Shown piece by piece: positions 1,839 through 16,679 of a DNA stretch of 21,093 bases; position 1 is the stretch's first letter, and every line of letters starts with the position of its first letter. The stretch lies in the IMG/VR virus record IMGVR_UViG_2579778952_000011, positions 1-21,093 of that record; one strand, 5' to 3'. Below the pieces are notes generated by a model. The model made no database searches. It was not told the origin of the DNA and saw nothing but the letters and a program-made list of their open reading frames with translations. The translations under genes were made by a program, and so were the position numbers. Origin of the DNA: a virus (taxonomy: Duplodnaviria; Heunggongvirae; Uroviricota; Caudoviricetes).

Positions 1839-2333
1839 ATGAGTATGGTTGCCAGAACTGAACCAAGACCCGCAGAGGACGACATCACCGATACCGATGA
1901 TGGTGATACCCGTATTTCAGCGGGTGCATTCTGGCCGGATATTGTGCTGCGTGAGCTGCGTCTGGCGATACGACTGCCGGGCCGTGTGACCACCTCCCGC
2001 CTGCTGCATACCGCCACCGGGGCAGTGGCACACGTTACCCGCGAGCTGGAAGCGTGGCAGCAGGAACAGCAGGCGGCTGGCCATCTGACGCTGGCCGATG
2101 TTCCGGCACCCGTAATTAACGGAGAAAGCGTCAATCTCTGGCACTGGCGCAATGCTGTTTATACCGCCACACGCGCCCTGATTCTGGAGCGTTACCGCGA
2201 TGCGGACACAACGGACAAGGGCGACCGCAGGGCGGACGCACTGGATATACAGACATCGGATTTGTGGCGTGATGTGAGCTGGGCCATCTCTGACATTCTG
2301 TGCCGCCCGCGAATCTTTGCGGAGTTGTGCTGA
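1839..2333 (+). CDS. L: Head completion/stabilisation protein (P2 gpL-like)
   Basis: A 164-aa ORF immediately upstream of X whose stop overlaps the X start. Position and size match P2 L; identity is inferred from synteny more than from motif recall. Confidence 0.6.
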   Translation: MSMVARTEPRPAEDDITDTDDGDTRISAGAFWPDIVLRELRLAIRLPGRVTTSRLLHTATGAVAHVTRELEAWQQEQQAAGHLTLADVPAPVINGESVNLWHWRNAVYTATRALILERYRDADTTDKGDRRADALDIQTSDLWRDVSWAISDILCRPRIFAELC

Positions 2334-2533
2334 TGAAAGTAAAGGCACTGGAAGGCGACACCGTGGATTCGCTCTGTTTCCGGTACTACGGCACGACGCA
2401 GGGCGTCACCGAAAAGGTGCTGGATGCCAACCCCGGACTCTGCCAGCAGGTATTTCTGGACGCCGGGCAGGACGTGGAGATGCCAGAGCCGGAGAAGAAG
2501 AAACGAGAAATGATTCAGTTGTGGGGGGAGTAG
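2333..2533 (+). CDS. X: Tail protein X (small LysM-like tail component)
   Basis: A 66-aa ORF (MKVKALEGDTVDSLCFRYYG...) with a LysM-like fold signature, ATGA overlap with L, and the expected position before the holin. Confidence 0.8.
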   Translation: MKVKALEGDTVDSLCFRYYGTTQGVTEKVLDANPGLCQQVFLDAGQDVEMPEPEKKKREMIQLWGE

Positions 2534-2535
2534 CA

Positions 2536-2859
2536 GTGAGCACCATTCAAACAGGGATCACAGAGCAGGTTATTGCGTGGCTCTTTGACCACCTGCCAAC
2601 GGTGTATGCAGTAGGCGCGGCGGTCAGCATTTCCGCGCTGATGAGTCTTTATGACGGACGAACACTGGTTCAGACCGTAACGGGATCGCTGGCGTGCGGC
2701 GTTCTTGCCATGGCCGTGGCCGGGTCGTTGCGCTTCTTCGGGTTTCCTGAAGATGCCGTGACGTTTATCGGCGCATCAATCGGTTTTATGGGGGCAGAGA
2801 AAGCACGCGACAAGGTTATTGCGGCCTTTAATCGCAGGGTGAAGGAGAAGGACGAATGA
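2536..2859 (+). CDS. Y: Holin
   Basis: GTG start 6 nt after a GGGGGGAG Shine-Dalgarno; 107 aa with 2-3 hydrophobic helices and a charged C-terminus (KARDKVIAAFNRRVKEKDE). ATGA overlap with the endolysin start. Confidence 0.75.
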   Translation: MSTIQTGITEQVIAWLFDHLPTVYAVGAAVSISALMSLYDGRTLVQTVTGSLACGVLAMAVAGSLRFFGFPEDAVTFIGASIGFMGAEKARDKVIAAFNRRVKEKDE

Positions 2860-3248
2860 GCAACACATTTAAATTCAGCAGCCGGAGCGAAAAGAATTTG
2901 CAGGGCGTAAACCCTGATCTGGTGAAAGTGACCCGACGGGCACTGGAAATTTCGGAAGTGGATTTTGGTATCACCGAAGGGTTGCGCAGCCGTTACCGCC
3001 AGAAGCAACTGGTGGCCACAGATAAGAGCCAGACCATGAACAGCCGCCACCTTACGGGACATGCTGTGGATGTTGTGGCTTATATCGGCAGCCAGGTGTC
3101 ATGGGAATGGCCGCTGTACGAAAAAATCGCAGCAGCATTCAGACAGGCCAGCCGGGAACTGAATATTCCGGTGGAATGGGGCGGCGACTGGAAGACCCTG
3201 AAAGACGGACCGCATTTTCAGTTACCACACGGAGTCTATCCGGCATGA
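2856..3248 (+). CDS. Endolysin, peptidase M15-type (L-alanyl-D-glutamate peptidase-like)
   Basis: A 130-aa protein with the SRHLTGHAVDV and WGGDW...HFQ zinc-peptidase motif pattern. It sits between holin and spanins. It is not the P2 K lysozyme type. Confidence 0.8.
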   Translation: MSNTFKFSSRSEKNLQGVNPDLVKVTRRALEISEVDFGITEGLRSRYRQKQLVATDKSQTMNSRHLTGHAVDVVAYIGSQVSWEWPLYEKIAAAFRQASRELNIPVEWGGDWKTLKDGPHFQLPHGVYPA

Positions 3249-3652
3249 AGCTCTGGCCCACGCTGGGTGTTGCTTTCCTTCTGATTGCCGCATGGGGAAC
3301 ATCCATGCGTCTGTCGTGGTCGCTGGGCCGGGAGAACGCCAGAAACGAAGCGCAGGCCAGCGCCCTGAAAAGTACCGCCGACACCCTGAATATCATCAGC
3401 GCCGGGGTACAGGATATGCAGCAGGTGCTGGCGCAACTCCGCGTGGAAAATCAGCAACGCAATCAGGACGGAGAGGCCAGACGTGAACAGCTACGCAACG
3501 ATATTGCAAAAGATGAATGCGCCCACGCTTTGCCTGACGCTCGTTTTACTGACAGGCTGCGCAGGCACGCAGAACGCGCCACTGCCAGCGCCGTCAGTCC
3601 GGCTTATACCGCAGACGCTGACCATACCGGTAACGCCTCCCCCCTTCCCTGA
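3245..3652 (+). CDS. lysB: i-spanin (Rz/LysB-like)
   Basis: ATG at 3245 overlaps the endolysin stop. N-terminal TM helix (LWPTLGVAFLLIAAW) followed by a coiled-coil-like, charged periplasmic domain. Confidence 0.7.
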   Translation: MKLWPTLGVAFLLIAAWGTSMRLSWSLGRENARNEAQASALKSTADTLNIISAGVQDMQQVLAQLRVENQQRNQDGEARREQLRNDIAKDECAHALPDARFTDRLRRHAERATASAVSPAYTADADHTGNASPLP

Positions 3653-3803
3653 CACTCCCACATGGGGAAATCTCGGTATATGGGGCGACCGCCTTCTGGA
3701 TGCACTGGAAACCTGTAACGCGGATAAACGGGCCATTGAATTACTGGAACAGCGCAGGCTGCAACGACTGAACAACGAGGACAACAACCATGCTGAAAAC
3801 TGA
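3483..3803 (+). CDS. lysC: o-spanin lipoprotein (Rz1/LysC-like), overlapping lysB in another frame
   Basis: Signal peptide with lipobox LLTGC and a proline-rich mature region (PLPAPSVRLIPQTLTIPVTPPPFP). It starts inside lysB and extends beyond it. The start may be the ATG at 3513. Confidence 0.7.
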   Translation: MNSYATILQKMNAPTLCLTLVLLTGCAGTQNAPLPAPSVRLIPQTLTIPVTPPPFPDTPTWGNLGIWGDRLLDALETCNADKRAIELLEQRRLQRLNNEDNNHAEN

Positions 3804-4257
3804 TTCCCTGCGTGAAGCCATGACCCGTTCATGCCGATGGTGTCAGGCTAACCCGGAAAAATTCACCATTTTCGTGGAGAGCGGCAACATTGAAACGACC
3901 GGAGAAACGCCCTCGTTTGTTTACCGCTATCAGATGGTGATGTTTGTCATGGATTACGCCGGGGAGCTGGACGACCTCACGCTGCCGCTACTGGCGTGGT
4001 TATCCGAAAATCAGCCACAGTTGTTGCTCAATCCGGAGCGTAATCAGGACATCAAATTTTCCGCCGTTATCAATGACGATGACAGCGCCGATCTCCTGTT
4101 TACGCTCCCCTTGCGGGAACGCGTTCGCATCACGCGCAGCAGTCAGGGCACACCGCAGGCAGAACACCTGCCGGAGCCAAAACCCCGCCTGCCATCTTCC
4201 GCAGGCGACTGGTCGCATGTATTCCAGGATGTGACGTGGGGTGAAAGCGATGGATAA
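3790..4257 (+). CDS. R: Tail completion protein R
   Basis: A 155-aa ORF, the same size as P2 gpR, in the expected position with translational coupling to lysC and S. Confidence 0.75.
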   Translation: MLKTDSLREAMTRSCRWCQANPEKFTIFVESGNIETTGETPSFVYRYQMVMFVMDYAGELDDLTLPLLAWLSENQPQLLLNPERNQDIKFSAVINDDDSADLLFTLPLRERVRITRSSQGTPQAEHLPEPKPRLPSSAGDWSHVFQDVTWGESDG

Positions 4258-4885
4258 GGCATTCACCCGCGTGGATGAAACCTTTGAGGCCATTCGCGAC
4301 AGCCTGAATCAGCAGGCCATCAATAACATCGCCAGAAAGCTGGCACAGGATTTACGTCGCGCCCAGCAGGCGCGTATCCGGTCACAGAAAGCGCCGGACG
4401 GGACCGCGTGGACACCACGCAGACGCCGCGTAACCCGGATACAGGAGCGCATTCGTTTTATCTGGAATAACGAAGCACGCACGCTGAAAAACTGGCATCA
4501 CGACACGGGGAAATACGGGCGAACCATCACCGGGTGGGATGAGGATAAAAACAGCATCCGCACGTTTTACCGGGATGACATCGACCGCTTTCTGGAAATA
4601 CGCACCCGGCGCATCGACCAGGACAGCACCAGGCGCGTCCCCATGTTCGTAAAACTGCGCACCGCCCGCTACCTGAAAGCCCGTGCAGATGCTTCCGGTG
4701 TGACGGTGGGTTACAGCGGCGTGGCCGCACGTATTGCACGCGTTCATCAGTTCGGTGAGCGCGATCAGGTTGCGCCGGGCATTTTCACCGATTACCCGGT
4801 ACGTGAGCTGCTGGGTATCAGCCAGGCAGATGAGCGCCTGATTTATAACACGGTGCTGGGCCGGATTGCGGAGGCTGTACAGTGA
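4250..4885 (+). CDS. S: Tail completion / virion morphogenesis protein S
   Basis: ATG at 4250 overlaps the R stop (ATGGATAA). At 211 aa it is longer than P2 S as I recall it, suggesting an insertion or extension. Confidence 0.65.
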   Translation: MDKAFTRVDETFEAIRDSLNQQAINNIARKLAQDLRRAQQARIRSQKAPDGTAWTPRRRRVTRIQERIRFIWNNEARTLKNWHHDTGKYGRTITGWDEDKNSIRTFYRDDIDRFLEIRTRRIDQDSTRRVPMFVKLRTARYLKARADASGVTVGYSGVAARIARVHQFGERDQVAPGIFTDYPVRELLGISQADERLIYNTVLGRIAEAVQ

Positions 4886-5463
4886 GCGCAGAACTCATGC
4901 GACTGCTGAGCAACATCATCCGCACCGGGATCATCTCTGAAGTTGATGAGAAGTCCTGGTGCGTGCGCGTTCGCAGCGGCGAACTGGAAACAGGCTGGTT
5001 ACGCTGGAACACCACGCGCGCAGGAGCCTTCAACGTGTGGCTGCCGCCATCACCCGGCGAACAGGTGGTAATTGCCTGCATTGGCGGCAACCCGGAAACC
5101 GCCATGATAATTGGCAGCCTGTGGAGTGATGCCAATCCGGCACCCGGCAAAAGCCTGAAAGAAATCGTGATCAGCGCGCCGGACGGCGCGGTGTTCCGCT
5201 ACGACGCGGACGCAGGCGCACTGAGCGCCAGCGGCATGAAAACGGCCACTTTACAGGCATCCGTCAGCGTGAAACTGGATACGCCCGTCGTGGAATGCAC
5301 AAACCTTCTGAGAACAGCGACGCTTGACGTCACAAAAGGGGGAAAGATGAGCGGCAATATCACGCACAGCGGCGGCGATTTCACCTCAAACGGCATCACA
5401 GTGCATACGCATAAACACGGTGGCGTGAAAGGCGGCAGCGATTCGACAGGAGGCCCGCAGTGA
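4882..5463 (+). CDS. V: Baseplate central spike protein V
   Basis: GTG start overlapping the S stop; 193 aa. N-terminal OB-fold-like region and a Gly-rich C-terminus (HSGGDFTSNGITVHTHKHGG), typical of gpV/gp5-like spikes. Confidence 0.8.
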   Translation: MSAELMRLLSNIIRTGIISEVDEKSWCVRVRSGELETGWLRWNTTRAGAFNVWLPPSPGEQVVIACIGGNPETAMIIGSLWSDANPAPGKSLKEIVISAPDGAVFRYDADAGALSASGMKTATLQASVSVKLDTPVVECTNLLRTATLDVTKGGKMSGNITHSGGDFTSNGITVHTHKHGGVKGGSDSTGGPQ

Positions 5464-5810
5464 CAACCCGCTACACAGGAATGAATCCGGACGGGACGGG
5501 AAACCTGAACGATATGGAGCACCTGAAACAGTCAGTCAGGGACATCCTGACCACCCCGCTGGCAAGCCGGGTTATGCGACGGGAATATGGCAGCCTTGTG
5601 CCTGATTTGATTGACGAACCCATGAATAACACCACGCGTCTGCAATGCATGAGTGCTGCCGTGATTGCGCTGACACGATGGGAACCCCGCATTGCCCTGG
5701 ATGCCATCGACGTTGTCTGGAAAGCGGGAGGCCGCGCAGGGGTGATGCTGTCGGGCACTGTCATGCAGACCATGCAGAATGTTGAGTTAACCATCACGCT
5801 GAGGGAGTAA
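5460..5810 (+). CDS. W: Baseplate wedge protein W (gp25-like)
   Basis: A 116-aa ORF with start overlapping the V stop; its size and position match gpW. Confidence 0.8.
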   Translation: MTTRYTGMNPDGTGNLNDMEHLKQSVRDILTTPLASRVMRREYGSLVPDLIDEPMNNTTRLQCMSAAVIALTRWEPRIALDAIDVVWKAGGRAGVMLSGTVMQTMQNVELTITLRE

Positions 5811-5813
5811 ATC

Positions 5814-6710
5814 ATGCCTGCTGTTGACCTTTCCCAGTTACCGGAACCCGCCATCATCGCGGAGCCTGATTTTGAGGCAATTCTGGCTGACACAAAGGCC
5901 ATGATGATTGCGGCTTATCCCGCCGAACAGCGTGAAGCCGTTTCCGCCGCGCTGGAGCTGGAATCGGAACCCCTTAACGTTATCGCTCAAACCATGTCGT
6001 TTCGTGAAATGCTGTTACGCCAGCGGGTCAATGAGGGGGCTCGCGCCTGCATGTTAAGCCACAGCGCCGGGACAGACCTGGACAACCTCGCGGGCAATAT
6101 GAACACAAAGCGCCTGACCATCACTCCGGCAACGGATACCACCGACGCGGTGATGGAGAGTGACACCTCACTGAGACTGCGGGCGCAGCGGGCGTACGAC
6201 GGCCTGAGTGTTGCTGGCCCGTCAGGTGCATACGAGTATTTTGCCCGCAGCGCCAGCGGTCTGGTGCGTGATGCGCGGGCCATCAGCCCGTCTCCGGCAA
6301 ATGTGACGGTTTCCATCCTGTCCACTGAAGGCGACCGCACAGCAACGGAGGCGTTGCTTAATACCGTTCGCGCCGTTCTGAATGCAGAGGATACCCGTCC
6401 GGTGGCCGACCGCCTGACCGTACAGAGTGCCAGAATCGTGACATGGCGGCTGAATGCAAAACTGTACTTTTACCCCGGCCCGGAATCCGAACCTATTCTG
6501 GCTGCGGCGGAATCGTCGTTCAGGAAGTGGCTGGCTGAGCAGGGGCTTATCGGTCAGGACGTGGCGTTGTCCGCCATTGCTGCCGCACTGCATGTGCACG
6601 GTGTGCAACGCGTGGAGATAATCGAACCCACACAGAATATGGCCATCAGCGACATACAGGCGGCGCGCTGTGAGTCGTTCACCATCAGCGAAGGTGGGCG
6701 TAATGAGTAA
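5814..6710 (+). CDS. J: Baseplate assembly protein J
   Basis: A 298-aa ORF between W and I; its size matches P2 gpJ. Confidence 0.8.
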   Translation: MPAVDLSQLPEPAIIAEPDFEAILADTKAMMIAAYPAEQREAVSAALELESEPLNVIAQTMSFREMLLRQRVNEGARACMLSHSAGTDLDNLAGNMNTKRLTITPATDTTDAVMESDTSLRLRAQRAYDGLSVAGPSGAYEYFARSASGLVRDARAISPSPANVTVSILSTEGDRTATEALLNTVRAVLNAEDTRPVADRLTVQSARIVTWRLNAKLYFYPGPESEPILAAAESSFRKWLAEQGLIGQDVALSAIAAALHVHGVQRVEIIEPTQNMAISDIQAARCESFTISEGGRNE

Positions 6711-7233
6711 TTCGTTGTTACCCCCATCAGCCAGCAATTTCATGCGTTGTGCAGAAGCCGTCGGAACACGCATTACAGACATCCCGGTAGACCTCAACAC
6801 ACTGTGGTCCCCGGACACCTGCCCGGTGCACCTGCTGCCTTATCTCGCCTGGGCATTTTCCGTTGACCGCTGGGATCGCAACTGGCCGGAAGAGACAAAG
6901 CGACAGGTTATTCGTGATGCATGGCTGATACACCGACACAAAGGGACCATCAGCGCACTGCGCCGGGCCATTGAGCCGCTGGGATACCTCATTCGCGTGT
7001 CTGAGTGGTGGGAATTCGGCGGAGAACCGGGAACATTTACCGTTGAAGTCGGCACGCTGGACAGTGGCGTGACGGAGGAAATGTATCTGGAAATGGAGCG
7101 GTTGATTGCTGATGCCCGCCCGGTCAGCCGCCACATGACAGGGCTGAATATCATTCAGGAAATTCCGGGGGATATTTTCGCAGCGGCGGCAACTTATGAC
7201 GGTGAAGTTATCACCATTTATCCAGGCGATTAA
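6703..7233 (+). CDS. I: Baseplate protein I
   Basis: ATG at 6703 overlaps the J stop; 176 aa, the same as P2 gpI. Confidence 0.8.
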
Positions 7234-7235
7234 GC

Positions 7236-9632
7236 ATGAGTACCACAACACGAAAATTTAAAACCGTTATCACCGATACGGGTGCAAAAAAATTAGCTCA
7301 GGCAGCCGCGCCAGATGGTAAGCCTGTCCGCCTGACTCATATGGCCGTGGGCGACGGTGGCGGCACGTTGCCCACACCAGACAGTAAGCAGACCCGTCTG
7401 GTGCATGAGGTGTGGCGACATACTGTTAATCGCGTCATCCTGGACGCAACACATCAGAATCGCATTATTGCGGAGCTGGTTATTCCTCCAGAAACGGGCG
7501 GATTCTGGATCCGGGAAATTGGTGTGTTTGATGAGCACGGCGATTTAATCGCGGTGGGCAATACTGCCGAAAGTTACAAGCCAGCCGTTGCCGAAGGGTC
7601 CGGTCGTGCACAAACATTTCGCACCATTCTGACCGTATCCAGCACTGCCACTGTGGCGCTTACCGTGGATAACACCATGGTGATGGCCACAGTGGATTAC
7701 GTGGATAACAAACTGAAAGAGCATGAACAGTCACGACGTCACCCGGATGCCTCGCTGACCGCAAAAGGCTTTGTTCAACTCAGTAGCGCCACTAACAGCG
7801 TGTCTGAAACACAAGCTGCAACGCCGAAAGCAGTAAAGGCCGCGTATGACCTTGCTAACGGGAAATATACTGCGCAGGATGCCAGCACAACGCGAAAAGG
7901 CCTTGTCCAGCTCAGTAGCGCCACCAACAGCGATTCTGAAACGCTGGCGGCAACACCAAAGGCGGTAAAGGCAGCATATGACCTTGCTAACGGGAAATAT
8001 ACCGCACAGGACGCTACCACAGCGCGAAAAGGTCTTATCCAGCTCAGCAGTGCGACTAACAGCACTTCCGAGTCACTGGCGGCAACGCCAAAAGCCGTTA
8101 AGGCCGCGTATGAGCTGGCTAACGGGAAATACACCGCACAGGATGCAACGACAGCACAGAAAGGGATAGTTCAGCTTAGCAACGCGACCAACAGCACATC
8201 TGAAACGCTGGCGGCAACGCCAAAGGCGGTAAAGGCAGCATATGACCTTGCTAACGGGAAATATACCGCACAGGACGCTACCACAGCGCGAAAAGGTCTT
8301 ATCCAGCTCAGCAGTGCGACTAACAGCACTTCCGAGTCACTGGCGGCAACGCCAAAAGCCGTTAAGGCCGCGTATGAGCTGGCTAACGGGAAATACACCG
8401 CACAGGATGCAACGACAGCACAGAAAGGGATAGTTCAGCTTAGCAACGCGACCAACAGCACATCTGAAACGCTGGCGGCAACGCCAAAGGCGGTAAAGGC
8501 AGCATATGACCTTGCTAACGGGAAATATACCGCACAGGACGCTACCACAGCGCGAAAAGGTCTTGTCCAGCTCAGTAGTGCAACCAACAGCACGTCTGAA
8601 ACGCTTGCCGCGACCCCGAAAGCGGTTAAAGCTGCTAATGACAATGCAAACGGGCGTGTGCCCTCTGGACGTAAGGTTAATGGCAAACCACTGACCAATG
8701 ATGTCAATGTTACATCACAGGATATTTTTAACGGTCAGAGTATTAATATTGGTGCAAACCAGAATCTGGATAATTACAAAACGCCGGGGCTGTACCATCA
8801 ACCCCTGAATGCCTATACAAGTGCAGCGCTGAAATACCCAGAGAATCTTGCCGGTACACTGGTTGTGCTTAAAAATGCCGGGATAACACAGATTTACTAT
8901 GTGTATAACACATCCAGAAGCTATACCCGCAGCCAGTACTCAACGGGTGACTGGACAGCATGGACGCCGCAGGATTCATTTCCTGTAGGTGCGGCGATTC
9001 CGTGGCCTTCTGATTCAGTGCCTACAGGCTATGCCGTTATGCAGGGGCAGACTTTTGATAAAACAACCTATCCCCTGCTTGCAGCAGCTTATCCCTCTGG
9101 TGTACTCCCCGATATGCGTGGCTGGACAATCAAGGGCAAACCCGCCAGTGGTCGGGACGTATTGTCTCTGGAACAGGATGGCATTAAATCGCACACCCAC
9201 AGCGCCAGCGCATCCAATACGGATTTGGGTACGAAAACCACATCTTCGTTTGATTACGGTACTAAATCAACGAATAACACAGGTGCACATACCCACAATG
9301 TATCTGGTACTGCAAATAGTGCTGGCGCACATACTCATACCGTGCCATTAAGGAGACCAAACAGTGGCGGTATGAATTTCGACTGGCTGGATGGTGCATC
9401 AAGTGGCACGGTGGTAGGGAATGGAACTGTGCCTTCTTCTGGCGCACATACCCACTCAGTATCAGGCACCGCTACAAGTGCTGGGGCACATGCACACACT
9501 GTTGGTATTGGCGCTCATACGCACTCTGTTGCGATTGGTTCACATGGACATACCATCACCGTTAACGCTGCTGGTAACGCGGAAAACACCGTTAAAAACA
9601 TCGCATTTAATTATATTGTGAGGCTTGCATAA
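7236..9632 (+). CDS. H: Tail fibre protein H with expanded fibre repeats and a His-rich distal tip
   Basis: 798 aa. Conserved P2 H-like N-terminus, seven tandem 44-aa repeats (KG[FLI][26 protein letters not shown]), a tail-collar-like segment ([28 protein letters not shown]) and repeated GAHTH motifs. Confidence 0.9.
7764..8687 (+). repeat. Seven tandem 132-bp coding repeats inside H, including an exact 264-bp tandem duplication
   Basis: Sequence 7957..8300 is identical to 8221..8564 (344 bp at a 264-bp offset). Successive repeat units begin at 7764, 7896, 8028, 8160, 8292, 8424 and 8556. Confidence 0.9.
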
Positions 9633-10249
9633 TGGCATTCAGAATGAGTGAACAATCACGCACTGTAAAAATTTATAACCTGCTGGCCGGAACTAATGAG
9701 TTTATTGGTGAAGGTGACGCATATATTCCACCTCATACAGGGCTGCCAGCTAATTCTACAGATATCGCCCCACCGGAAATTCCTGCTGGCTTTGTGGCAG
9801 TTTTTAACAGTGAAAATGAATCGTGGAATATTGTTGAAGACCATCGTGGTAAAACGGTCTATGACGTGGCATCGGGGGACGCGTTGTTTATTTCTGAACC
9901 CGGACCGCTACCAGAGAATGTCACCTGGTTGTCGCCAGCAGGGGAATATCAGAAGTGGGACGGCGTATCCTGGGTGAAGGATGAGGAAGCAGAAAAACTG
10001 TTTCGGATACGGGAAGCGGAAGAGAAAAAGGCAAGGTTGATCCAGGAGGCAACAGATAACATCGCAATCCTGCAGGATGCAGTTAATCTTGAAATAGCAA
10101 CAAACGAGGAAAATTCACAACTGGATTCCTGGAGAAAATACAGAGTATTAGTGAGTAGAATTGACACCAGTACAGCTCCGGATATCGTATGGCCAGAGCT
10201 GATGAATCAGGGTTATGTGCGGGAGGACGAGCAGATAACTTCAGACTGA
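9632..10249 (+). CDS. G: Tail fibre assembly chaperone (Tfa/gpG-like)
   Basis: TAATG overlap with the H stop; 205 aa; position and size typical of Tfa. AT-rich relative to the tail core genes. Confidence 0.8.
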
Positions 10250-10776
10250 AATTTAGTGATGAATGTTGAATCATCAGGAATATCATGCAATACCAATGCA
10301 TGAGCACCTATTGTGACATTGTTTCCTATACGCACTTTGCCACCAAGAATGGTGGCATTACAACCAATGGTCACATTATGTCCTATAACAATATCCATAT
10401 CATTAAAATCACCACGTAGCCCAATAGTTACCCCCGGTTTTATTGAACAATTTTCACCGATTGTTACTTTGTGACCGATAACAACACTGTTGAGATAAGA
10501 AATATCAAAACCTTTCCCTATATTTACAGTTAAAGGGACTGTTACATTATATTTATCAAGAATGAAACGTTCTATTTTCCCCGCAATCTTCCGACAGTAT
10601 CCGCCTTTATCAAAAAGGTATTTGGCTATGCGCCACCAAAATAAATAACGAAGTCTTCTATGTTTTATTGCGCGAACAATTGCCTTTCGCCAGGAGAAAG
10701 GACGCTCGCTACCGATTACTTCATAGTGAATACAGTCTTTAAGTTCATTAATATTCATATCTCTATTATTCAGCAT
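10213..10776 (-). CDS. Hexapeptide-repeat (left-handed beta-helix) acyl/acetyltransferase, CysE/WcaB-like; moron
   Basis: Clear [LIV]-G-x4 hexapeptide repeats ([20 protein letters not shown]...[35 protein letters not shown]) after an N-terminal helical region. Sits in an AT-rich island. Its 3' end overlaps the G stop convergently by 37 bp. Confidence 0.8.
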
Positions 10777-10899
10777 AAGATAATCATGTGACCAATTATT
10801 GTAATAATTTTAATGGTATGTTTCTACTGGCTATCCAGCGTGTCTGATACCCAGTAACAAATCGTTAACACAGGTGCAATCAAATGGTGAGTGTTAAGA

Positions 10900-10939
10900 C
10901 TGGCCACTTATTACCAGGTATGAGGGTATGAGTGGCCAG
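10900..10939 (-). other. 9-bp inverted repeat (ctggccact / agtggccag) enclosing a tandem ggtatgag ggtatgag, immediately 3' of U
   Basis: Seen directly in the sequence. Could be a weak terminator or protein-binding site at the left edge of the minus-strand tail block. Confidence 0.3.
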
Positions 10940-10946
10940 CATTAAA

Positions 10947-11441
10947 TCAGAACAGCCCTTTAACTGAACTGGCCGCGCTGTTAAGGGATGATGTCACTTT
11001 ATCTTTGAAGCCGGACAGAATATCGCTGAACGATGAGGATTGCAGGCGCTCCCGCAAATCCTCATCACAGCGTTCAAGGGTCAGTGAAAATTCTATCTTT
11101 TTCGCCTTACCGTAGCGATCAAACTCGGAACGGGTCGTATTCGTTTCGGTCAGGACATACATGCCGTAAATCTGCCCGACGCCATCAATAAGAGGCCAGG
11201 GGCGTCCTGTATACGCCTGCGTGGTCAGCAGCGACAGCGACACTTCGCCACCTGTAATTTCAGGATAAAGCACACCAGAAAGAACGATGCGATCATCACC
11301 TGCACCGATATACTGCCAGCTTGCTGAACGGTTAACGCGTTCATTTTTCACATGCCGCCAGCTTTTGTTTTGCTGTAACTGCTGATGCGGCAGCGTGCGC
11401 AGCTCAAAAACAAACATGCCGTAGATCATCATCATGGCCAT
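10947..11441 (-). CDS. U: Tail protein U
   Basis: A roughly 162-aa ORF directly downstream of T on the minus strand. GAGGAG Shine-Dalgarno; the start is probably the second ATG at 11435. Confidence 0.75.
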   Translation of the reverse strand: MAMMMIYGMFVFELRTLPHQQLQQNKSWRHVKNERVNRSASWQYIGAGDDRIVLSGVLYPEITGGEVSLSLLTTQAYTGRPWPLIDGVGQIYGMYVLTETNTTRSEFDRYGKAKKIEFSLTLERCDEDLRERLQSSSFSDILSGFKDKVTSSLNSAASSVKGLF

Positions 11442-11447
11442 GACTCC

Positions 11448-14291
11448 TCAATCTTTATCGTAAAAACTGCCACGCCCGGCATGGGCACGCCGTTCCATTT
11501 CTGCCCTGACCATTTCACCGACCAGTTTCGCCAGTTCGCGGGGATTCTGCGTAACAACGTTATGCAGATGAACATGAATTTCACCACCAAATCCGGAGGC
11601 AACAGGCTCCCGGTTACGGGAAGTTGCAGGAACTGATGCCACTGGCGATCGTATGGCCTCCGCCACCGGGTGAGAGCTGGCCGCAACAACAGGGACCAGC
11701 GCCGGAGGCAGCGGAGCCGGAACCACGGGGGTGATATTAATTGCGGGGGCAGGCTTACTGACCTGTGTAATCTTCCGCTCCTGCCACTCCCCACGAACAG
11801 CAAGTGCGCGGGGCAGGTTCTTAAAGACAATATCGCCGGGGCCAATGCGTTTTTTCGTCTCATCAACCAGCTTACCTGTGTTATCAGCAATTTTGCTGAG
11901 TCTGCGTAGCGTCCCGGTATTGCTGTCTGTGAGCGGTTTGTTGTCTTTGGGTTTATCACCTCCGGTGCCATTGCCATTTTCCACAGGCTTCGGCGGATTG
12001 ATTTTCGCCAGGTCCCCCTGAAGTAAGGCTACCTTGTCCTGAAGAATGGCCGCACGCTGTGCGTCTTCGATTTTCTTGCGCGCCCTTTCCGCTTCATCCG
12101 GAAGGACGCCAAGTTTTTCAAGTATCCACGCCAGCGTATCCAGTAGCATTTTTGCAGGTGTCAGAACAAGTTGTAACGCACCGCCAAGAACGTTACCGAA
12201 TATCTCGCCAGCACTGGTACATTTATCCAGCGTTTCCTTGCTGGACTCCATCGGTGACAGTAGCGATTTAAACCAGTTAAACACCTGGCTGATCCCGCTT
12301 CCGATTGCGTCAAAAACAGGACCAAACCGTTCAAAAGTTTCGCGCAACGGGGTCAGCCTTTCCATAATCCCGCTGAACACCCCGGCAAAAAATGCCCTGA
12401 TGGGATCCCAGTATTTCCAGATAAGAACGGCAGCTCCGGCAAGCGCAGCCACGATAAGACCAACCGGACTGAACAGCGCCCCGATAGCACCTCCCAGCAA
12501 AGAAACGGAACCCGTCACCATTCCCCATAGTGCTGGCAGGAGCCTGACAGCATTCATTGATCCGGTCAGGAGGGAAAAACCAAGACGCAGTTTTGCCAGC
12601 GGGCCAGCAAGCACACCAAGAGCAAGCGACAACGAGCCTACGGTTGCAGTCACTGCCAGCAGCGCACCGCCTGCAATCAGTAGCTGGCGCGTCAGTACAG
12701 GATGGGCCTGCGCCAGTACCGTCACCTTTGAGACCACCCGTGTTAGCCACTGCGTGACAGAACGCAGCGGACCGTCAACCAGATCACTGATGCGAATACG
12801 AAGACCTTCCCATGCGCTGTCGAGATTTTTCAGGTCGCCATCAAGGTTGTCGGCCATAACCTTTGCCGTGCGTTCAGCCTCACCGCGTGCGCCCTCAAGT
12901 TCTTTTCTCAGTTTGGGTAAGGAACCGTCACCCGCCGCATCAACGAGTGCCATAAACGATGTGAAAGCCTCTTCCCCGGCGATATCCTTAAAGAAGGATA
13001 CCCGGTCAACTTCCCCGTATTTGCGGGTAGCTTTATAAAGGTCAGCCAGCAGATCTTCCATCGGGCGCATTTTGCCCCCGGCATCCGAAACGGACACGCC
13101 CAGCTCTTTCAGAGCTTCTGCCGCCGCCTTTGGCGGTGATGCCAGACGAGCCAGGCTGGCACGCATTGCCGTCCCGGCATCACTCCCTCTGATGCCCATA
13201 TTCGCCAGCACGCCCGCCATCGCTGCGGTCTGCTCCAGCGATATTCCCAGCTTACCCGCCACCGGACCTGCATATTTCATGGTTTCGCCCAGTGCGCGAA
13301 GGTCAGTGTTGGTACGGGTAAACGCTGCGGTGAGTGTGTCACCGACCCGGTCCATCTGGTCAGCAGAAAGGCCGAACTGCGTCAGGATATTTGAGCCAAT
13401 ATCTGCCGTCTCGCCGAGATCCATACCGCCAGCCGTTGCCATGCTCAGCACGCCGGGAAGCGCAGCCTGAATGGCCTGCGGAGTGAAGCCAGCCATTGCA
13501 AGAAATGCCTGTCCACTGGCGGCATCGCCTGCGGTGAACTGCGTTTCAGAGCCAAGTTTTAACGCCTGCTCACGCAGCGCCTTAAACTGCGGGCTGTTCT
13601 GGTCGATTCGCGTCAGTGCCTGAACGCGGGACATCTCTTTGCCGAACCCGATCGCAGGCTGCAAAAAACGCCCGGCAGCATAGCCGCCCGCCGCTGCCGC
13701 ACCAATTGCCAGTGCACCACCTGTTTTCAGTTTTCCCGCTGTTTCCTGCGCGCGCGAATACCGCTCACGCGCCCGCGTTACACGCGCAAGCGCCTGCCGT
13801 TCGCGTTCAAGCTGATTGTTGTACTGTTCGGTGCGTCTGATGGCCTGCTGGATGGTGTTATCGCTGCCTGTCAGGGAAATGCCGTGGCGTTTCAGCTCTC
13901 CGCCAAGCTCCCGCATTTTCTGAATTTCCCGCGTGCGCGATTCATTCAGGCGTTCAAGCCGGGTGCTTAACTGCTGCATCAGCTTTTGTTGTTTTTCGCT
14001 GAGCACTGTACCCGTGCGTTGTAACTGATTAAGGGCGTTAAGCTGGCGTCGTGCTTTCACGATACCCGCATCCGCTTTACTGACAGCGTCGCGGGCGCGC
14101 TCAAATGAACGCGCCTGACGCTCGAGATTTTTGATCGCCCCCTGCGTTCGCTGGATGGAGTCACCAAACTGCCCCATCAGGCGGCGGGCGTTTTCGGCAG
14201 GCTGGGTCAGCCTGTCAACGGCGCTGAAAGCGACCCGGATATCAAGAGTCTTCATTGTCTGCATTCCCGCTGCGAAGTGCCGCCCGCTCAC
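11448..14291 (-). CDS. T: Tail tape measure protein T
   Basis: 947 aa, with an N-terminal coiled-coil-rich region, central hydrophobic/Gly-Ala-rich segments and a long helical region; lies downstream of E/E'. Confidence 0.9.
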   Translation of the reverse strand: MSGRHFAAGMQTMKTLDIRVAFSAVDRLTQPAENARRLMGQFGDSIQRTQGAIKNLERQARSFERARDAVSKADAGIVKARRQLNALNQLQRTGTVLSEKQQKLMQQLSTRLERLNESRTREIQKMRELGGELKRHGISLTGSDNTIQQAIRRTEQYNNQLERERQALARVTRARERYSRAQETAGKLKTGGALAIGAAAAGGYAAGRFLQPAIGFGKEMSRVQALTRIDQNSPQFKALREQALKLGSETQFTAGDAASGQAFLAMAGFTPQAIQAALPGVLSMATAGGMDLGETADIGSNILTQFGLSADQMDRVGDTLTAAFTRTNTDLRALGETMKYAGPVAGKLGISLEQTAAMAGVLANMGIRGSDAGTAMRASLARLASPPKAAAEALKELGVSVSDAGGKMRPMEDLLADLYKATRKYGEVDRVSFFKDIAGEEAFTSFMALVDAAGDGSLPKLRKELEGARGEAERTAKVMADNLDGDLKNLDSAWEGLRIRISDLVDGPLRSVTQWLTRVVSKVTVLAQAHPVLTRQLLIAGGALLAVTATVGSLSLALGVLAGPLAKLRLGFSLLTGSMNAVRLLPALWGMVTGSVSLLGGAIGALFSPVGLIVAALAGAAVLIWKYWDPIRAFFAGVFSGIMERLTPLRETFERFGPVFDAIGSGISQVFNWFKSLLSPMESSKETLDKCTSAGEIFGNVLGGALQLVLTPAKMLLDTLAWILEKLGVLPDEAERARKKIEDAQRAAILQDKVALLQGDLAKINPPKPVENGNGTGGDKPKDNKPLTDSNTGTLRRLSKIADNTGKLVDETKKRIGPGDIVFKNLPRALAVRGEWQERKITQVSKPAPAINITPVVPAPLPPALVPVVAASSHPVAEAIRSPVASVPATSRNREPVASGFGGEIHVHLHNVVTQNPRELAKLVGEMVRAEMERRAHAGRGSFYDKD

Positions 14292-14771
14292 GCCAGCTAA
14301 CCACTTCGCCGGGCGTCATCATGAAGATTTCGGCGGGCGACCAGTTAAAAATAACGGCAATATCTGCCACAAAGTCTTCTATGTGCTCAAAGCACACAAC
14401 CGTGATCAGGCTTCCGTCGCCTGTTCGTTCTTCCCGCCAGAGTCCGCACCGCTCAAAAAATTTACGGCAACCACACATAACTGAATAAAGTCACGGGATG
14501 CCATTTTTTTGATCGTCACTTCATCCAGTCGCGGTGATGTCACTCGTGACAGCAGCGTAAACATGGATTCCGCTTTCAGATTCAGCACATCAGACAGCGA
14601 CAAATCTCGCAGAGATCCAGCCTGCTCAATAGCCCCGGTGATCTCCACATACGTGATTTTTTCGCCGCCTCGCTCAATTGGTTGGGTAAGTTTTACGCCA
14701 CGCTCACTGGTTTCTTTCACAGTGTCAGCAACTACCGTGTTTTCGGTATCGATGTTTTTCGTCTCTTTCAT
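14242..14771 (-). CDS. E': E+E' tail chaperone produced by a programmed -1 frameshift
   Basis: The -1 frame is open from the slippery site T.TTT.TTG (minus strand; plus-strand coordinates 14454..14460) to 14242, overlapping the T start. This is the same arrangement as P2 E/E' and lambda G/GT. Confidence 0.55.
14406..14771 (-). CDS. E: Tail assembly chaperone E
   Basis: A 121-aa ORF between FII and T that ends just after a TTTTTTG slippery heptamer. Confidence 0.75.
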   Translation of the reverse strand: MKETKNIDTENTVVADTVKETSERGVKLTQPIERGGEKITYVEITGAIEQAGSLRDLSLSDVLNLKAESMFTLLSRVTSPRLDEVTIKKMASRDFIQLCVVAVNFLSGADSGGKNEQATEA

Positions 14772-14825
14772 CAGGAAACTCCTTTCAGTCAGAGGCGACG
14801 CACTGCGCCGCCTGCATATTACTTA

Positions 14826-15338
14826 TCAGCCAAGCCCAAGCGCGGAACGGATGCGATCGGGCACAATGTCCTTGCCGTCCTTCCGGTAAATGAAGTTCAG
14901 CAGGTCAATCTCCCACAACGGACGATCGTTAACACTCAGCTTGTAGTAGGTGTTTTTAATGGCGTAAGTGTGTGATGTGGCTTCGCCCTGTTTGGCTTCC
15001 CCCATATCAATTTCCGTCACGCGTCCGCGCATTTCGACTTCATACAGGTCGCTTTCTGCATCGGTGTAGTATTCACCCGCAAAACGCAGTAGCGTGCCGT
15101 CAATCGTGCCGCCATACTTAAGGAACAGCTCACGAACTGCGCCCCCCATGACAAAGCTCGCATCAAGCGCGGAGTCGTCCAGACCGAGATCAATACTTAC
15201 CGCACCCATCATGCCACCACCCCGGTAGCTGTCGGTTTTGCGCGTCAGTTTAGGCAGGGTGACGGACGTCACCTTACCCACTTCGTTTTCACCATCCACA
15301 AACAGCGTAAAAAAGCGAAGATGTTTTGGTACAGCCAT
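14826..15338 (-). CDS. FII: Tail tube protein FII
   Basis: A 170-aa ORF directly after the sheath gene with an overlapping stop/start; its size matches P2 FII. Confidence 0.85.
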   Translation of the reverse strand: MAVPKHLRFFTLFVDGENEVGKVTSVTLPKLTRKTDSYRGGGMMGAVSIDLGLDDSALDASFVMGGAVRELFLKYGGTIDGTLLRFAGEYYTDAESDLYEVEMRGRVTEIDMGEAKQGEATSHTYAIKNTYYKLSVNDRPLWEIDLLNFIYRKDGKDIVPDRIRSALGLG

Positions 15339-16522
15339 CAGGCACCTCCCAGCACCGCAAATGCGGGACCAAAGAATTCATCAGTAAACGACTGGTAAAG
15401 CTCCATGTCTTCCAGCGGAGGAACGGGCGTATATTTGTAGCGAATACGCACACGCCCCTGACGTAAATCCGTGGTGCTGTTATCCACCACGTCATACCAG
15501 CACGACGCCCCAATCAGTTTCCCGGCAGTAACCAGTGAATCCAGTTTTGCCCTGATGGCACTGATAACATCCTTCACGTTCGCAGGCGTCAGTGGACTAT
15601 CGATGGTTTCAAACTGCGCTTCCGCAATTGAATCAGCCAGCACCTGTGCGGTTCGGGTATACACCTCAAAGATGTAGGCGTTCGTTTCCGGTGTGCGGTT
15701 GCCCCAGAAGCGGAACCCGTTGCGACGAATAATGGTCGTGATTTCTTTGTTGTTGAGGCTGTTGGCATCACTGTCTTCGGCCTGCAACGACCAGAACACA
15801 TGCCTGGACATCCCCAGCACATTTTTAACCGGAACGTTGGACAGCGATTTGTGCCAGCCCTGCTCATGGTCAATGTACGCACGAAGGCCGCACGCATAGG
15901 CAGGCGCGGGGAACGTTTCGTTTTTGCCACTTTTCGGGTTGTAGGCGATGAAGTCCGGCCATAAGAGCATCACCTCACGTTCGTTGAATTTCTGGCGGTA
16001 GGTAATCGCCTCAGCCATCGTGTTACAGCCGTGACATGAGGCATACACAAACGCGCGCAGTTTACCCGCAATCACGCACAGGGATTTTGTTACCGCCTCC
16101 GTGTCCAGCTCCGGCGCGGCCAGAATACGCGGACGGTATCCGATGCTTTCATCCTGCTCTGCAACAAGCAGCGCATACATCCCCGTATAGCTGCCGTCAG
16201 ATTCAGAACCACCGATAACCAGTTGATCCTGCGTTTTTCCGTCTTCTTCTTTGTGTTCAGCCACGCGAACGACGATCACCTTTGTACTCACCTGGTCTGC
16301 GATGGCCTTAAGCGCACGATAAAGCGTCCCCGTTGTCCCGCATTTTCCCAGCACGTCATTGACGCGGGTCAGCAGTGTGGGCTTGTTCAGCGGGAACAGC
16401 TTCGCGTCCGCATCATCCGCCGTTGCCACGATACCGATAACGCTGGAATCAACATCGTTAATCGCTGTTACCAGGTCGGTATTTTCCGTAACACGGGCAC
16501 CATGAAAACGAGTTTCACTCAT
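15338..16522 (-). CDS. FI: Contractile tail sheath protein FI
   Basis: 394 aa (P2 FI is about 396), with AAGGGG Shine-Dalgarno 8 nt before the ATG; first gene of the minus-strand tail block. Confidence 0.9.
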   Translation of the reverse strand: MSETRFHGARVTENTDLVTAINDVDSSVIGIVATADDADAKLFPLNKPTLLTRVNDVLGKCGTTGTLYRALKAIADQVSTKVIVVRVAEHKEEDGKTQDQLVIGGSESDGSYTGMYALLVAEQDESIGYRPRILAAPELDTEAVTKSLCVIAGKLRAFVYASCHGCNTMAEAITYRQKFNEREVMLLWPDFIAYNPKSGKNETFPAPAYACGLRAYIDHEQGWHKSLSNVPVKNVLGMSRHVFWSLQAEDSDANSLNNKEITTIIRRNGFRFWGNRTPETNAYIFEVYTRTAQVLADSIAEAQFETIDSPLTPANVKDVISAIRAKLDSLVTAGKLIGASCWYDVVDNSTTDLRQGRVRIRYKYTPVPPLEDMELYQSFTDEFFGPAFAVLGGA

Positions 16523-16679
16523 AGCTTCAGCCCCTTGTATCCGTTAAATGATTCGGCAACAATCATCACCCACCACGCGCGTAATCTCACCCCTGCGCCG
16601 TTCTCTCGCCACGGCGACAACAAAAAGCAGTAACCCCCTCCGCACGCACATGCGACCATGCCGCACAGGGAGGGAGCAG

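Follow-up and report, generated by a model that had tools for sequence, protein, structure and literature searches.

Reversed FI–U tail gene block in a P88-like prophage: a probable ancient inversion and a candidate bidirectional late promoter between FI and D

The stretch of viral DNA analyzed here (IMG/VR record IMGVR_UViG_2579778952_000011, positions 1–21,093; hereafter the window) carries a P2-like tail and late gene module that is divided between the two strands. Based on the open reading frame listing and Pfam matches, V-W-J-I-H-G, D, and ogr lie on the plus strand, and U, T, E/E', FII, and FI occupy the minus strand at 10947–16522. An earlier note on this DNA, made from the sequence alone, had placed FI through U on the minus strand and G, D, and ogr on the plus strand, and this assignment is borne out. 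The V–G run includes H (7236–9632, plus; open reading frame listing) and ends with a G-type tail fibre assembly gene (9632–10249, plus; Pfam Caudo_TAP, E = 1.6e-39), whose product resembles G of P2, 186, and P88 by tblastn in its C-terminal part only.

Five tail genes make up the minus-strand block. The leftmost encodes the tail protein gpU (10947–11441, minus; Pfam Phage_P2_GpU, E = 5.5e-39), with 98.8% amino acid identity to P88 and 46% to P2 U. It is followed by the gene for the tape measure protein gpT (11448–14291, minus; Pfam PhageMin_Tail), 97% identical to P88 and 33% to P2 T by tblastn; translation of T probably begins at 14255, the PGAP-type start in the annotation of a homologous prophage. 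An E' frame of the GpE family (14242–14397, minus; open reading frame listing) matches a 156-nt coding sequence annotated as ‘GpE family phage tail protein’ in both the homologous prophage and P88. By analogy with P2, for which E+E' is annotated, E' would be reached from E through a -1 frameshift. The tail assembly chaperone gpE itself (14406–14771, minus) is 97.5% identical to P88 and 32% to P2 E (tblastn). The tail tube protein gpFII (14826–15338, minus; Pfam Phage_tube, E = 7.5e-47) shows 100% identity to P88 and 42% to P2, and the tail sheath protein gpFI (15338–16522, minus; Pfam sheath domains), which leads the leftward operon, shows 98.5% and 45%, respectively.

To the right of FI lies D, encoding the baseplate hub or late control D protein (16680–17789, plus; Pfam Phage_GPD; 98.8% identity to P88 and 49–50% to D of P2 and 186). 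The longest open reading frame for D begins at 16548, and the ATG at 16680 was taken as the real start: it is preceded by the ribosome-binding site GGGAGGGAG and yields a product of 369 amino acids, as PGAP annotates, that aligns with the D proteins of P2 and 186. Because D starts at 16680 rather than 16548, the FI/D spacer is correctly delimited as 16523–16679. Directly downstream of D is a gene for an Ogr/Delta-type zinc-finger late activator (17832–18092, plus; Pfam Ogr_Delta, E = 5e-14), with cysteines at positions 4, 7, 32, and 37 of the translation.

At its other end, the block adjoins a variable slot between G and U. Here, the slot contains a hexapeptide (LbH) O-acetyltransferase cargo gene (10213–10776, minus; Pfam Hexapep) that overlaps the 3' end of G, has a low GC content (0.39–0.44), and matches the NCBIfam families EpsC, CysE, and WcaB, in each case under the cut-off. 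This gene is outside the inverted tail block proper. P88 lacks it and has an invertible fibre segment and a DNA invertase at the same position, and to the right of the slot homology to P88 restarts only at 10942. Given the acetyltransferase gene in the G–U interval and the late return of P88 homology, positions 10777–10946 form part of the variable cargo slot. Of the two intergenic intervals in which the earlier note had located inversion breakpoints, 16523–16679 is right, and 10777–10946 is not simply intergenic. An imperfect hairpin directly 3' of the U stop codon (10894–10945, minus; inverted repeat with 18-nt arms, 83% complementary, and no T-run) is a possible, weak candidate for the end of the FI–U transcript; the search for an intrinsic terminator after U returned weak candidates only, and this hairpin was not called by the terminator scan.

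Gene-by-gene tblastn against P2 (NC_001895) and 186 (NC_001317) gave matches to both phages for L, R, S, V, W, J, I, H, G, FI, FII, T, U, D, and ogr, and to P2 only for E, with protein identities of 32–72%. Taken with the Pfam domains, these matches show the late and tail module of P2-like phages, with homologues of L, X, the lysis genes, R, S, V, W, J, I, H, G, FI, FII, E/E', T, U, D, and ogr in the expected local order. The tail gene set, the E/E' frameshift layout, and an Ogr/B-type activator are common to the window and these two phages. Gene order inside each block is that of P2; it is the orientation of FI–U alone that differs, being opposite to that of the V–G run, D, and ogr. FI-FII-E-T-U-D in P2 and 186 is a single rightward operon co-oriented with V–G, in which D overlaps or abuts U and has no promoter of its own, and the window does not follow this canonical layout. 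Such a flip is nevertheless compatible with membership of the Peduoviridae, since three ICTV genera of that family also lack the canonical layout. The outgroup phiCTX carries the P2 order; since FI–U in the window runs the other way from P2 and 186, an inversion did occur in evolution. To this extent the earlier note was correct in proposing one.

The same order is present in P88 (Xuanwuvirus P88, NC_026014), for which V–G are annotated on the plus strand, U–FI on the minus strand, and D on the plus strand. Positions 10942–18496 of the window are collinear in one piece with P88, PhiR44_2, Shae_phiSM, and P884B11 at 95–97% DNA identity, and P88 is 97% identical across U–FI, D, and ogr. All four phages share the order and strands of the window (L–S and V-W-J-I-H-G plus; U-T-E'-E-FII-FI minus; D and ogr plus), and over L–I and U–ogr their proteins are 95–100% identical to those of the window. 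They differ from it in the C-terminal two thirds of H and in G. Its int and C belong to a different type and share 44% and 33% amino acid identity, respectively, with those of P88. The window prophage is otherwise rearranged by a deletion from cox to M, so that the 3' part of cox through M, present in P88, is missing, and its left end carries an unusual deletion junction that was absent from every complete E. coli genome searched. The ICTV criterion for a genus is approximately 70% nucleotide similarity over the full length. The 95–97% identity between the window and P88 extends over 10942–18496 and 1733–~8100; the int/C type and the fibre end differ and early and head regions are deleted, so this figure covers part of the genome. 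P88 is inducible and plaque-forming (PMC5285337), and PhiSM of Citrobacter rodentium is also plaque-forming (PMC6456863).

The inverted FI–U block and the divergent FI/D junction extend to phages of other genera, namely Salmonella phage SEN5 (Senquatrovirus) and Klebsiella phage Kp4871-3 (Reginaelenavirus). These are divergent from the window in sequence and cargo (D identities of 63% and 70%, respectively), and SEN5 differs further in having no cargo gene between G and U. We surveyed 80 prophage loci of GTDB species representatives, found by alignment of the D protein. Inverted order was observed in all 51 loci with a D protein at least 61% identical to that of the window, spanning approximately 25 genera of Enterobacterales, and each of these has a divergent FI/D spacer of 122–198 bp. 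P2 order was found in all surveyed loci with 47–54% identical D proteins that retain FI. Xenorhabdus loci are present in both arrangement classes, and the xnp1 tailocin locus is accordingly not claimed to be inverted. With U-T-E-FII-FI opposite to V–G and D-ogr and a divergent FI/D spacer in the range of ~120–200 bp, the window has the marks of the P88-like lineage. In neighbor-joining trees rooted on phiCTX, inverted loci formed one clade for D (53/53), FI (53/53), FII (54/54), and U (47/47).

These observations bear on the possibility that the inversion is recent and specific to this element or strain, leaving D stranded from its promoter. Such a reading would account for the reversal relative to P2 and 186, and the cox-to-M deletion adds that this prophage has been rearranged elsewhere too. 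However, P88, other isolated phages, 1380 E. coli genomes, and all 51 related prophages (about 25 genera) have an identical arrangement and junction sequence; the inverted loci are monophyletic; and the FI/D spacer has a conserved promoter-like anatomy. We regard a strain-specific recent inversion as refuted by the P88-type phages, the E. coli genomes, and the prophage survey, and give it a negligible chance. The earlier note had itself recognized that reference P2-like phages with the same strands would make the order a lineage feature; since P88, PhiSM, SEN5, a Reginaelenavirus phage, and all 51 prophages have this arrangement, it is not a rearrangement of this element. Misassembly of the source sequence is likewise extremely improbable. 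The deletion junction at the left end, found in no complete E. coli genome searched, might raise that suspicion, but both the FI|D and the U-side junction are seen again in phage genomes and in hundreds of complete assemblies made independently, which refutes an artefact as the source of the inversion.

The earlier note also suggested a search for isolates of opposite orientation. Among 5426 complete E. coli genomes, 1380 carried the FI|D junction, which in 1301 was intact at a single place. By comparison, none of the 1415 genomes holding either half of a synthetic P2-type U-to-D junction contained the junction itself, and no isolate of the opposite orientation was thus detected in this set.

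This result weighs against a programmed invertible segment switched by a serine invertase of the Gin/Cin/Hin type. Invertase-mediated fibre switching is common in the P2-like family, the P88 DNA invertase gene (26977–27564) and alternative fibre segments adjoin the U end of the block, and 186 has an annotated Mu-like crossover site. The systems of Mu (G/Gin), P1 (C/Cin), e14 (P/Pin), and the P88 fibre switch likewise involve DNA inversion in the tail region of a myovirus beside fibre genes. These switches are reversible, span approximately 1–4 kb, and have short inverted crossover sites, an adjacent serine invertase, and coexisting orientations. The FI–U block, in contrast, has no such repeats, no invertase, and a single orientation in every genome examined. 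An inverted-repeat search recovered neither inverted repeats nor recombinase sites pairing 10777–10946 with 16523–16679, as the earlier note had contemplated. The window encodes no invertase, the acetyltransferase being the sole gene between G and U, and the invertase of P88 serves the fibre segment. Besides the lack of the opposite U-to-D junction in 1415 E. coli genomes, one orientation was seen in 51 of 51 species representatives, and a flip would also disrupt the conserved geometry of the predicted bidirectional promoter. A programmed switch is therefore most improbable.

Taken together, we propose, with a probability of roughly 0.85, that the window contains the tail module of a P2-family prophage, P88-like and of Xuanwuvirus type, in which one ancient, fixed inversion placed FI-FII-E/E'-T-U on the opposite strand and left a site in the FI/D spacer shared by two late promoters. 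The inversion would have occurred once, in the branch of the P2 family that comprises Xuanwuvirus, Senquatrovirus, Reginaelenavirus, and many Enterobacterales prophages, and the order would have been fixed since, in a form compatible with fully infectious phage. This proposal builds on direct observations: the arrangement and its distribution, its monophyly, the failure to find the opposite orientation, and a spacer geometry that is conserved. The nucleotide breakpoints of an event of this age are beyond recovery, and inversion in situ is not strictly distinguishable from replacement of the block in reverse orientation. Deposited genome annotations mean that the inverted order is already known; we found no paper explicitly concerned with it. 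The FI–U inversion is unmentioned in the P88, PhiSM, xenorhabdicin, and carotovoricin papers and in the literature on Xuanwuvirus and Peduoviridae inversions that we searched, where the inversions discussed are those of tail-fibre loci.

The 157-bp FI/D spacer contains one Ogr-type dyad. P2 late promoters contain TGT-N12-ACA and are Ogr-dependent (PMC3931495). The predicted activator site in the spacer (16600–16621) is an exact match to GTTCT-N12-ACAAC, with a TCT-N12-ACA core at 16602–16619 centred on 16610.5. A predicted -10 hexamer lies on each side, starting 44 nt from the dyad centre: GATGAT (16562–16567, minus) for a leftward FI promoter and GACCAT (16654–16659, plus), preceded by a conserved CGCGCGC-like block, for a rightward D promoter. 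Ogr-type promoters lack a good -35 and are characterized by a hyphenated TGT-N12-ACA dyad, its centre some 55 nt before the start, and by a -10-like hexamer that begins 44–45 nt from that centre; with the starts as predicted, both features are present, the hexamer on both sides, with TCT rather than TGT as the left half-site. In P88, PhiR44_2, Shae_phiSM, and P884B11, the spacer differs from that of the window at 2 of 157 positions, and the motif and both hexamers are unchanged. Scanning for sigma-70 consensus promoters revealed none directed toward FI or D within 16523–16679.

Within the spacer, conserved positions cluster in a small number of short blocks of the alignment, which include the dyad and its flanking blocks. 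The dyad is retained as T(G/C)T-N12-ACA in 33 of 34 relatives, many of which have the canonical TGT. The -10 positions emerge from a count of hexamer register and not from the block alignment: on the FI side, an nAnnAT hexamer lies exactly 44 nt from the dyad centre in all 33 divergent relatives, which share ancestry and hence do not amount to 33 independent observations, and on the D side it occurs at +44 in 23 of 33 and at +45 in three more, and is missing at register in seven. At other offsets, nAnnAT formed a scattered background of few sequences per position. Counted over the whole window with up to one mismatch, the activator motif occurred six times against 2.1 expected, and 10 of 100 shuffled sequences reached six, which is not above chance; one exact copy falls inside the T gene. 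As these counts do not exceed chance, the case for a promoter rests on position and conservation. A strict scan for TGT-N12-ACA in the window and P88 returned matches at coding or irrelevant positions only, and misses the FI/D site because this lineage has TCT in the left half-site here. P88 has three exact copies of GTTCT-N12-ACAAC, of which two are in the divergent late spacers P/O and FI/D, and the P side of its P/O spacer has a similar CGCGCGC-N-TAATCT arrangement.

The geometry resembles that of mapped late promoters. In late promoters of P2 and 186, a dyad precedes the start by about 55 nt, as proposed for the window. At the annotated PP/PO activator site of P2, transcription starts 55.5 nt from the centre in both directions and the hexamers are at +44; the hexamer is at +45 in P2 PF and 186 pJ. 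The divergent late promoters P2 PP/PO and 186 p12/pV each have one common activator site, which is the model we propose for the FI/D spacer. From this anatomy, we infer that Ogr binds the spacer site and that transcription would start near 16555 on the minus strand and near 16666 on the plus strand. The inversion would have brought the PF promoter, with its dyad-symmetric Ogr-binding site, next to D. The PF activator site being a dyad, it seems reasonably probable that this move made a second bidirectional Ogr-dependent late promoter: the single site centred on 16610.5 would serve two divergent promoters about 55 bp to either side, in the way that one activator site serves PP and PO of P2, with the leftward promoter driving FI-FII-E/E'-T-U and the rightward one D and probably ogr. 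We found no papers describing such a bidirectional FI/D late promoter. The earlier expectation that D had been cut off from its promoter is probably unfounded, as the sequence of the spacer is organized like a bidirectional promoter dependent on Ogr.

It is also conceivable, but unlikely, that the order is ancient and lineage-wide and that D has a constitutive promoter or one under different regulation, or a start located farther upstream in the spacer, instead of being driven by the shared Ogr site. The D-side hexamer GACCAT is weak and absent at register in 7 of 33 relatives, and the predicted D leader is only about 14 nt. The lack of a D-directed sigma-70 promoter in the spacer is expected if the promoter is activator-dependent but would also fit the absence of any promoter. 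Against this reading, the geometry is mirror-symmetric, with +44 hexamers on both sides in most relatives as in the mapped P2 PP/PO pair; ahead of the D-side hexamer there is a conserved CGCGCGC block, which has a counterpart on the P side of the P/O spacer in P88; and the P2 annotation gives D as an essential late tail gene. A shared Ogr site is the reading we prefer for D.

Among P88-like phages the flipped block is standard; it is present in about one quarter of complete E. coli genomes and is no sign of a recent rearrangement, a switch, or misassembly. For annotation, V–G followed by reversed U–FI and then D-ogr is a quick marker that separates the P88-like clade from the P2/186 type. If the promoter model is true, the classical F operon is split in two and a whole clade of Peduoviridae would have a five-promoter late programme. 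The data suggest that an essential operon may be split by inversion without regulatory loss, through a palindromic activator site that works both ways.

Gene identities were taken from an open reading frame listing and a Pfam scan of the window, supplemented by tblastn for the genes L, X, holin, endolysin, LysB-like, R, S, V, W, J, and I (1839-7233), all on the plus strand. These are followed on the same strand by the tail fibre gene H (7236-9632) and the fibre assembly gene G (9632-10249). The minus strand then encodes gpU (10947-11441), the tape measure T (11448-14291), the E' frame (14242-14397) and E (14406-14771), both from the listing, the tube FII (14826-15338), and the sheath FI (15338-16522), before gpD (from Pfam) and an Ogr/Delta zinc-finger protein (17832-18092) return to plus. 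The longest D reading frame begins at 16548; we place its start at ATG 16680, preceded by GGGAGGGAG, giving the 369-residue protein annotated in a homologous prophage, which aligns with P2 and 186 D. GC skew changes sign across the minus-strand block, as expected from the change of coding strand.

We compared orientation gene by gene using tblastn against P2 and 186, read against both annotations. L, R, S, V, W, J, I, H, G, D, and ogr are co-oriented with their homologues, whereas FI, FII, T, and U have the opposite relative orientation in both phages; E is likewise opposed in P2 and has no tblastn match in 186. The listing and tblastn thus bear out the earlier note's observation of a minus-strand block between plus-strand neighbours, and the segment inverted relative to P2 and 186 is exactly FI to U. 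Of the breakpoint intervals proposed there (10777-10946 and 16523-16679), the second is indeed the FI/D spacer, but the first is part of a variable cargo slot, an acetyltransferase gene between G and U having been missed. At this slot P2 is annotated with Z/fun, and P88, a P2-like Xuanwuvirus phage, with a DNA invertase beside an invertible fibre segment. A repeat search found no inverted repeats pairing the two junctions.

The hexapeptide acetyltransferase gene (10213-10776, minus; listing and Pfam) has a GC content of 0.39-0.44 and is convergent with G, overlapping it by 37 nt. Its product has relatives among EpsC, CysE, and WcaB-type sugar or serine acetyltransferases, scoring below every NCBIfam cut-off, and may act in surface-polysaccharide modification; sigma-70-like promoter candidates of its own lie at 10826-10798 and 10794-10765. 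The adjacent H-G region (7236-10249) is a mosaic host-range module: H, with seven Phage_fiber_2 repeats and a collar domain, matches P88 over its first ~300 residues only and P2 over its first ~254 only, and its C-terminal part together with G resembles the lambdoid-phage genes for side tail fibres and their assembly (83-87% DNA identity).

The idea that this particular element was rearranged was not upheld, since reference P2-like phages share its strand arrangement. By megablast, positions 10942-18496, covering U to FI, the divergent junction, D, and ogr, form a single collinear alignment of 95-97% identity with P88, PhiR44_2, Shae_phiSM, P884B11, and other Xuanwuvirus members. In the RefSeq annotation of P88, U-T-E'-E-FII-FI likewise lies on minus, flanked by V to G and by D on plus. 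SEN5 (Senquatrovirus) and Kp4871-3 (Reginaelenavirus) also have the inverted order, unlike Pseudomonas phage phiCTX, which has that of P2. P88 can be induced and lyses new hosts (PMC5285337), and PhiSM shows spontaneous release and plaque formation and establishes lysogeny in K-12 (PMC6456863); the inverted order is thus compatible with a working virus. Neither of these papers comments on the inversion. As an observation the order is already known and ordinary: the reference genomes deposited for three ICTV genera show it.

The arrangement is equally uniform in bacterial genomes. A 1.4-kb query spanning the FI|D junction (the interval 16523-16679 and its surroundings) was found in 1380 of 5426 complete E. 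coli genomes, intact at one place in 1301; the non-intact cases among sampled rows were IS30 insertions or truncations. A synthetic query fusing the U 3' end straight to the D 5' end, as in P2, represented the opposite orientation that the earlier note had suggested seeking, and it occurred as one place in none of the 1415 E. coli genomes holding either half. More widely, D-protein alignment yielded 80 loci in GTDB species representatives, which were classified by tblastn. Where D shares 61% identity or more with that of the window, all 51 loci have V, J, and I on plus, U, T, FII, and FI on minus, and D and ogr on plus; their hosts are Salmonella, Trabulsiella, Edwardsiella, Serratia, Erwinia, Pantoea, Kosakonia, Enterobacter, Citrobacter, Klebsiella, Pectobacterium, Brenneria, Symbiopectobacterium, Xenorhabdus, Photorhabdus, Providencia, Morganella, Hafnia, Yersinia, and others. 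The remaining 29 loci (D 47-54% identical) show P2 order in 20/20 that keep FI, the other nine being without it.

A strain-level inversion is excluded by the phage matches, the 5426-genome survey, the 51/51 loci, and the 0/1415 opposite junctions. An invertase-driven switch is excluded by the single orientation throughout, the lack of joining repeats, and the absence of an invertase from the window, and an assembly artefact by recurrence across phages, E. coli genomes, and GTDB loci. When D, FI, FII, and U were each used to build a neighbour-joining tree with phiCTX as the root, all inverted loci formed one clade each time; as phiCTX has P2 order, that order is ancestral, and one ancient event is the simplest account. 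Proteins of the two arrangement classes share 32-50% identity, so the nucleotide breakpoints are beyond recovery.

Gene content makes the element a P2-family member with a tail module of the P88-like lineage; its int and C differ in type from those of P88, and it lacks the early and head regions, being a deletion derivative. A P2-type int (1-1020, minus; 50% amino acid identity to P2 Int), a C-type repressor (1102-1440, minus), and a truncated cox reading frame (1538-1735) beside the Pe/Pc region precede a fusion of cox to the M-L spacer at 1733/1734 (P88 position 17061), indicating deletion of the replication and head genes: the rest of cox, the replication genes, and Q, P, O, N, and M have been lost. 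What is kept intact (lysis cassette, complete tail module, D, and ogr) amounts to a tailocin-like set of genes. The 1733/1734 junction was found in none of the complete E. coli RefSeq genomes, the best matches beginning at 1729. Just upstream of gpL, a long G+C-rich hairpin followed by seven T (GGGCGGCGTGCGCGGTG...CACCGCGCACCCACCGCCCGATTTTTTT, 1745-1828) looks like a strong intrinsic terminator; it lies between truncated cox and L, a place that in P2 corresponds to the inside of the O operon.

To the right of ogr, within 18280-21093, is an AT-rich stretch (GC 0.35-0.38). A Hok/Gef-type toxin gene (~18283-18423, placed by comparison with annotated genomes), a zinc-ribbon protein (18556-18933), and a small reading frame with a faint TagO/VasI-like match (18938-19219) precede host flk (20098-21093), which places the attachment region between ogr/hok and flk. 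The prophage site is between pdxB and flk, with pdxB on the far side in an E. coli genome carrying a homologous prophage. Decay of this prophage family is common: in the homologous prophage of E. coli, IS30 splits the FI/D region in several O157:H7 and cattle strains, and in other strains there are insertions of IS1 or IS100 or deletions from V to H. A 226-kb contig also holds a P88-like prophage whose D is 98% identical to that of the window; the contig is labelled 'Vagococcus sp. WN89Y' (NZ_JBQPOM010000071.1), a Firmicute record that is probably contaminated or mislabelled.

The FI/D spacer is 122-198 bp long in 51/51 inverted loci. An alignment of 34 non-redundant spacers diverges strongly outside a few short conserved blocks, including G+C-rich ones on the FI side (CACG) and on the D side (CGCGCGC), and a hyphenated dyad, TCT-N12-ACA at 16602-16619 in the window (extended, GTTCT-N12-ACAAC, 16600-16621). 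The canonical form, GTTGT-N12-ACAAC, occurs in many relatives, and TGT-N12-ACA defines the Ogr-dependent late promoters of P2 (PMC3931495). P88 contains exact GTTCT-N12-ACAAC three times: in its P/O and FI/D spacers, its sole two divergent late spacers, and inside T. The copy in T (12170-12191, minus, the coding strand; P88 28823-28844) could be fortuitous or could mark an internal late promoter. Counting -10-like nAnnAT hexamers at offsets 16-70 from the dyad centre in relatives that are not independent observations, we found one starting exactly at +44 on the FI side in 33/33, and on the D side at +44 in 23/33 and +45 in three more; other offsets gave only scattered background, with a few sequences per position. 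The window has GATGAT (16562-16567, minus) and GACCAT (16654-16659, plus) in the +44 register. This geometry is that of the divergent P2 PP/PO pair, with its annotated activator site, mapped starts 55.5 nt from the centre on both sides, and hexamers at +44; in P2 PF and 186 pJ the hexamer is at +45.

From the conserved dyad, the hexamer register, and the likeness to PP/PO, we propose one Ogr-bound site serving both FI-U and D, which the earlier note had thought cut off from its promoter. The left half-site in the window is imperfect (TCT), the D-side hexamer is absent from the expected register in 7/33 relatives, and Ogr motifs over the whole window are not above chance in number; the sole live alternative, that D uses some other promoter within the spacer, we consider improbable. 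We found no paper stating the FI-U inversion or discussing an FI/D promoter, and a bidirectional promoter would thus be a small, testable addition rather than a discovery. The single Ogr-bound site would drive FI-U leftward and D rightward from starts predicted near 16555 and 16666, respectively, and transcription of D would probably continue into ogr, which lies 42 bp further on.
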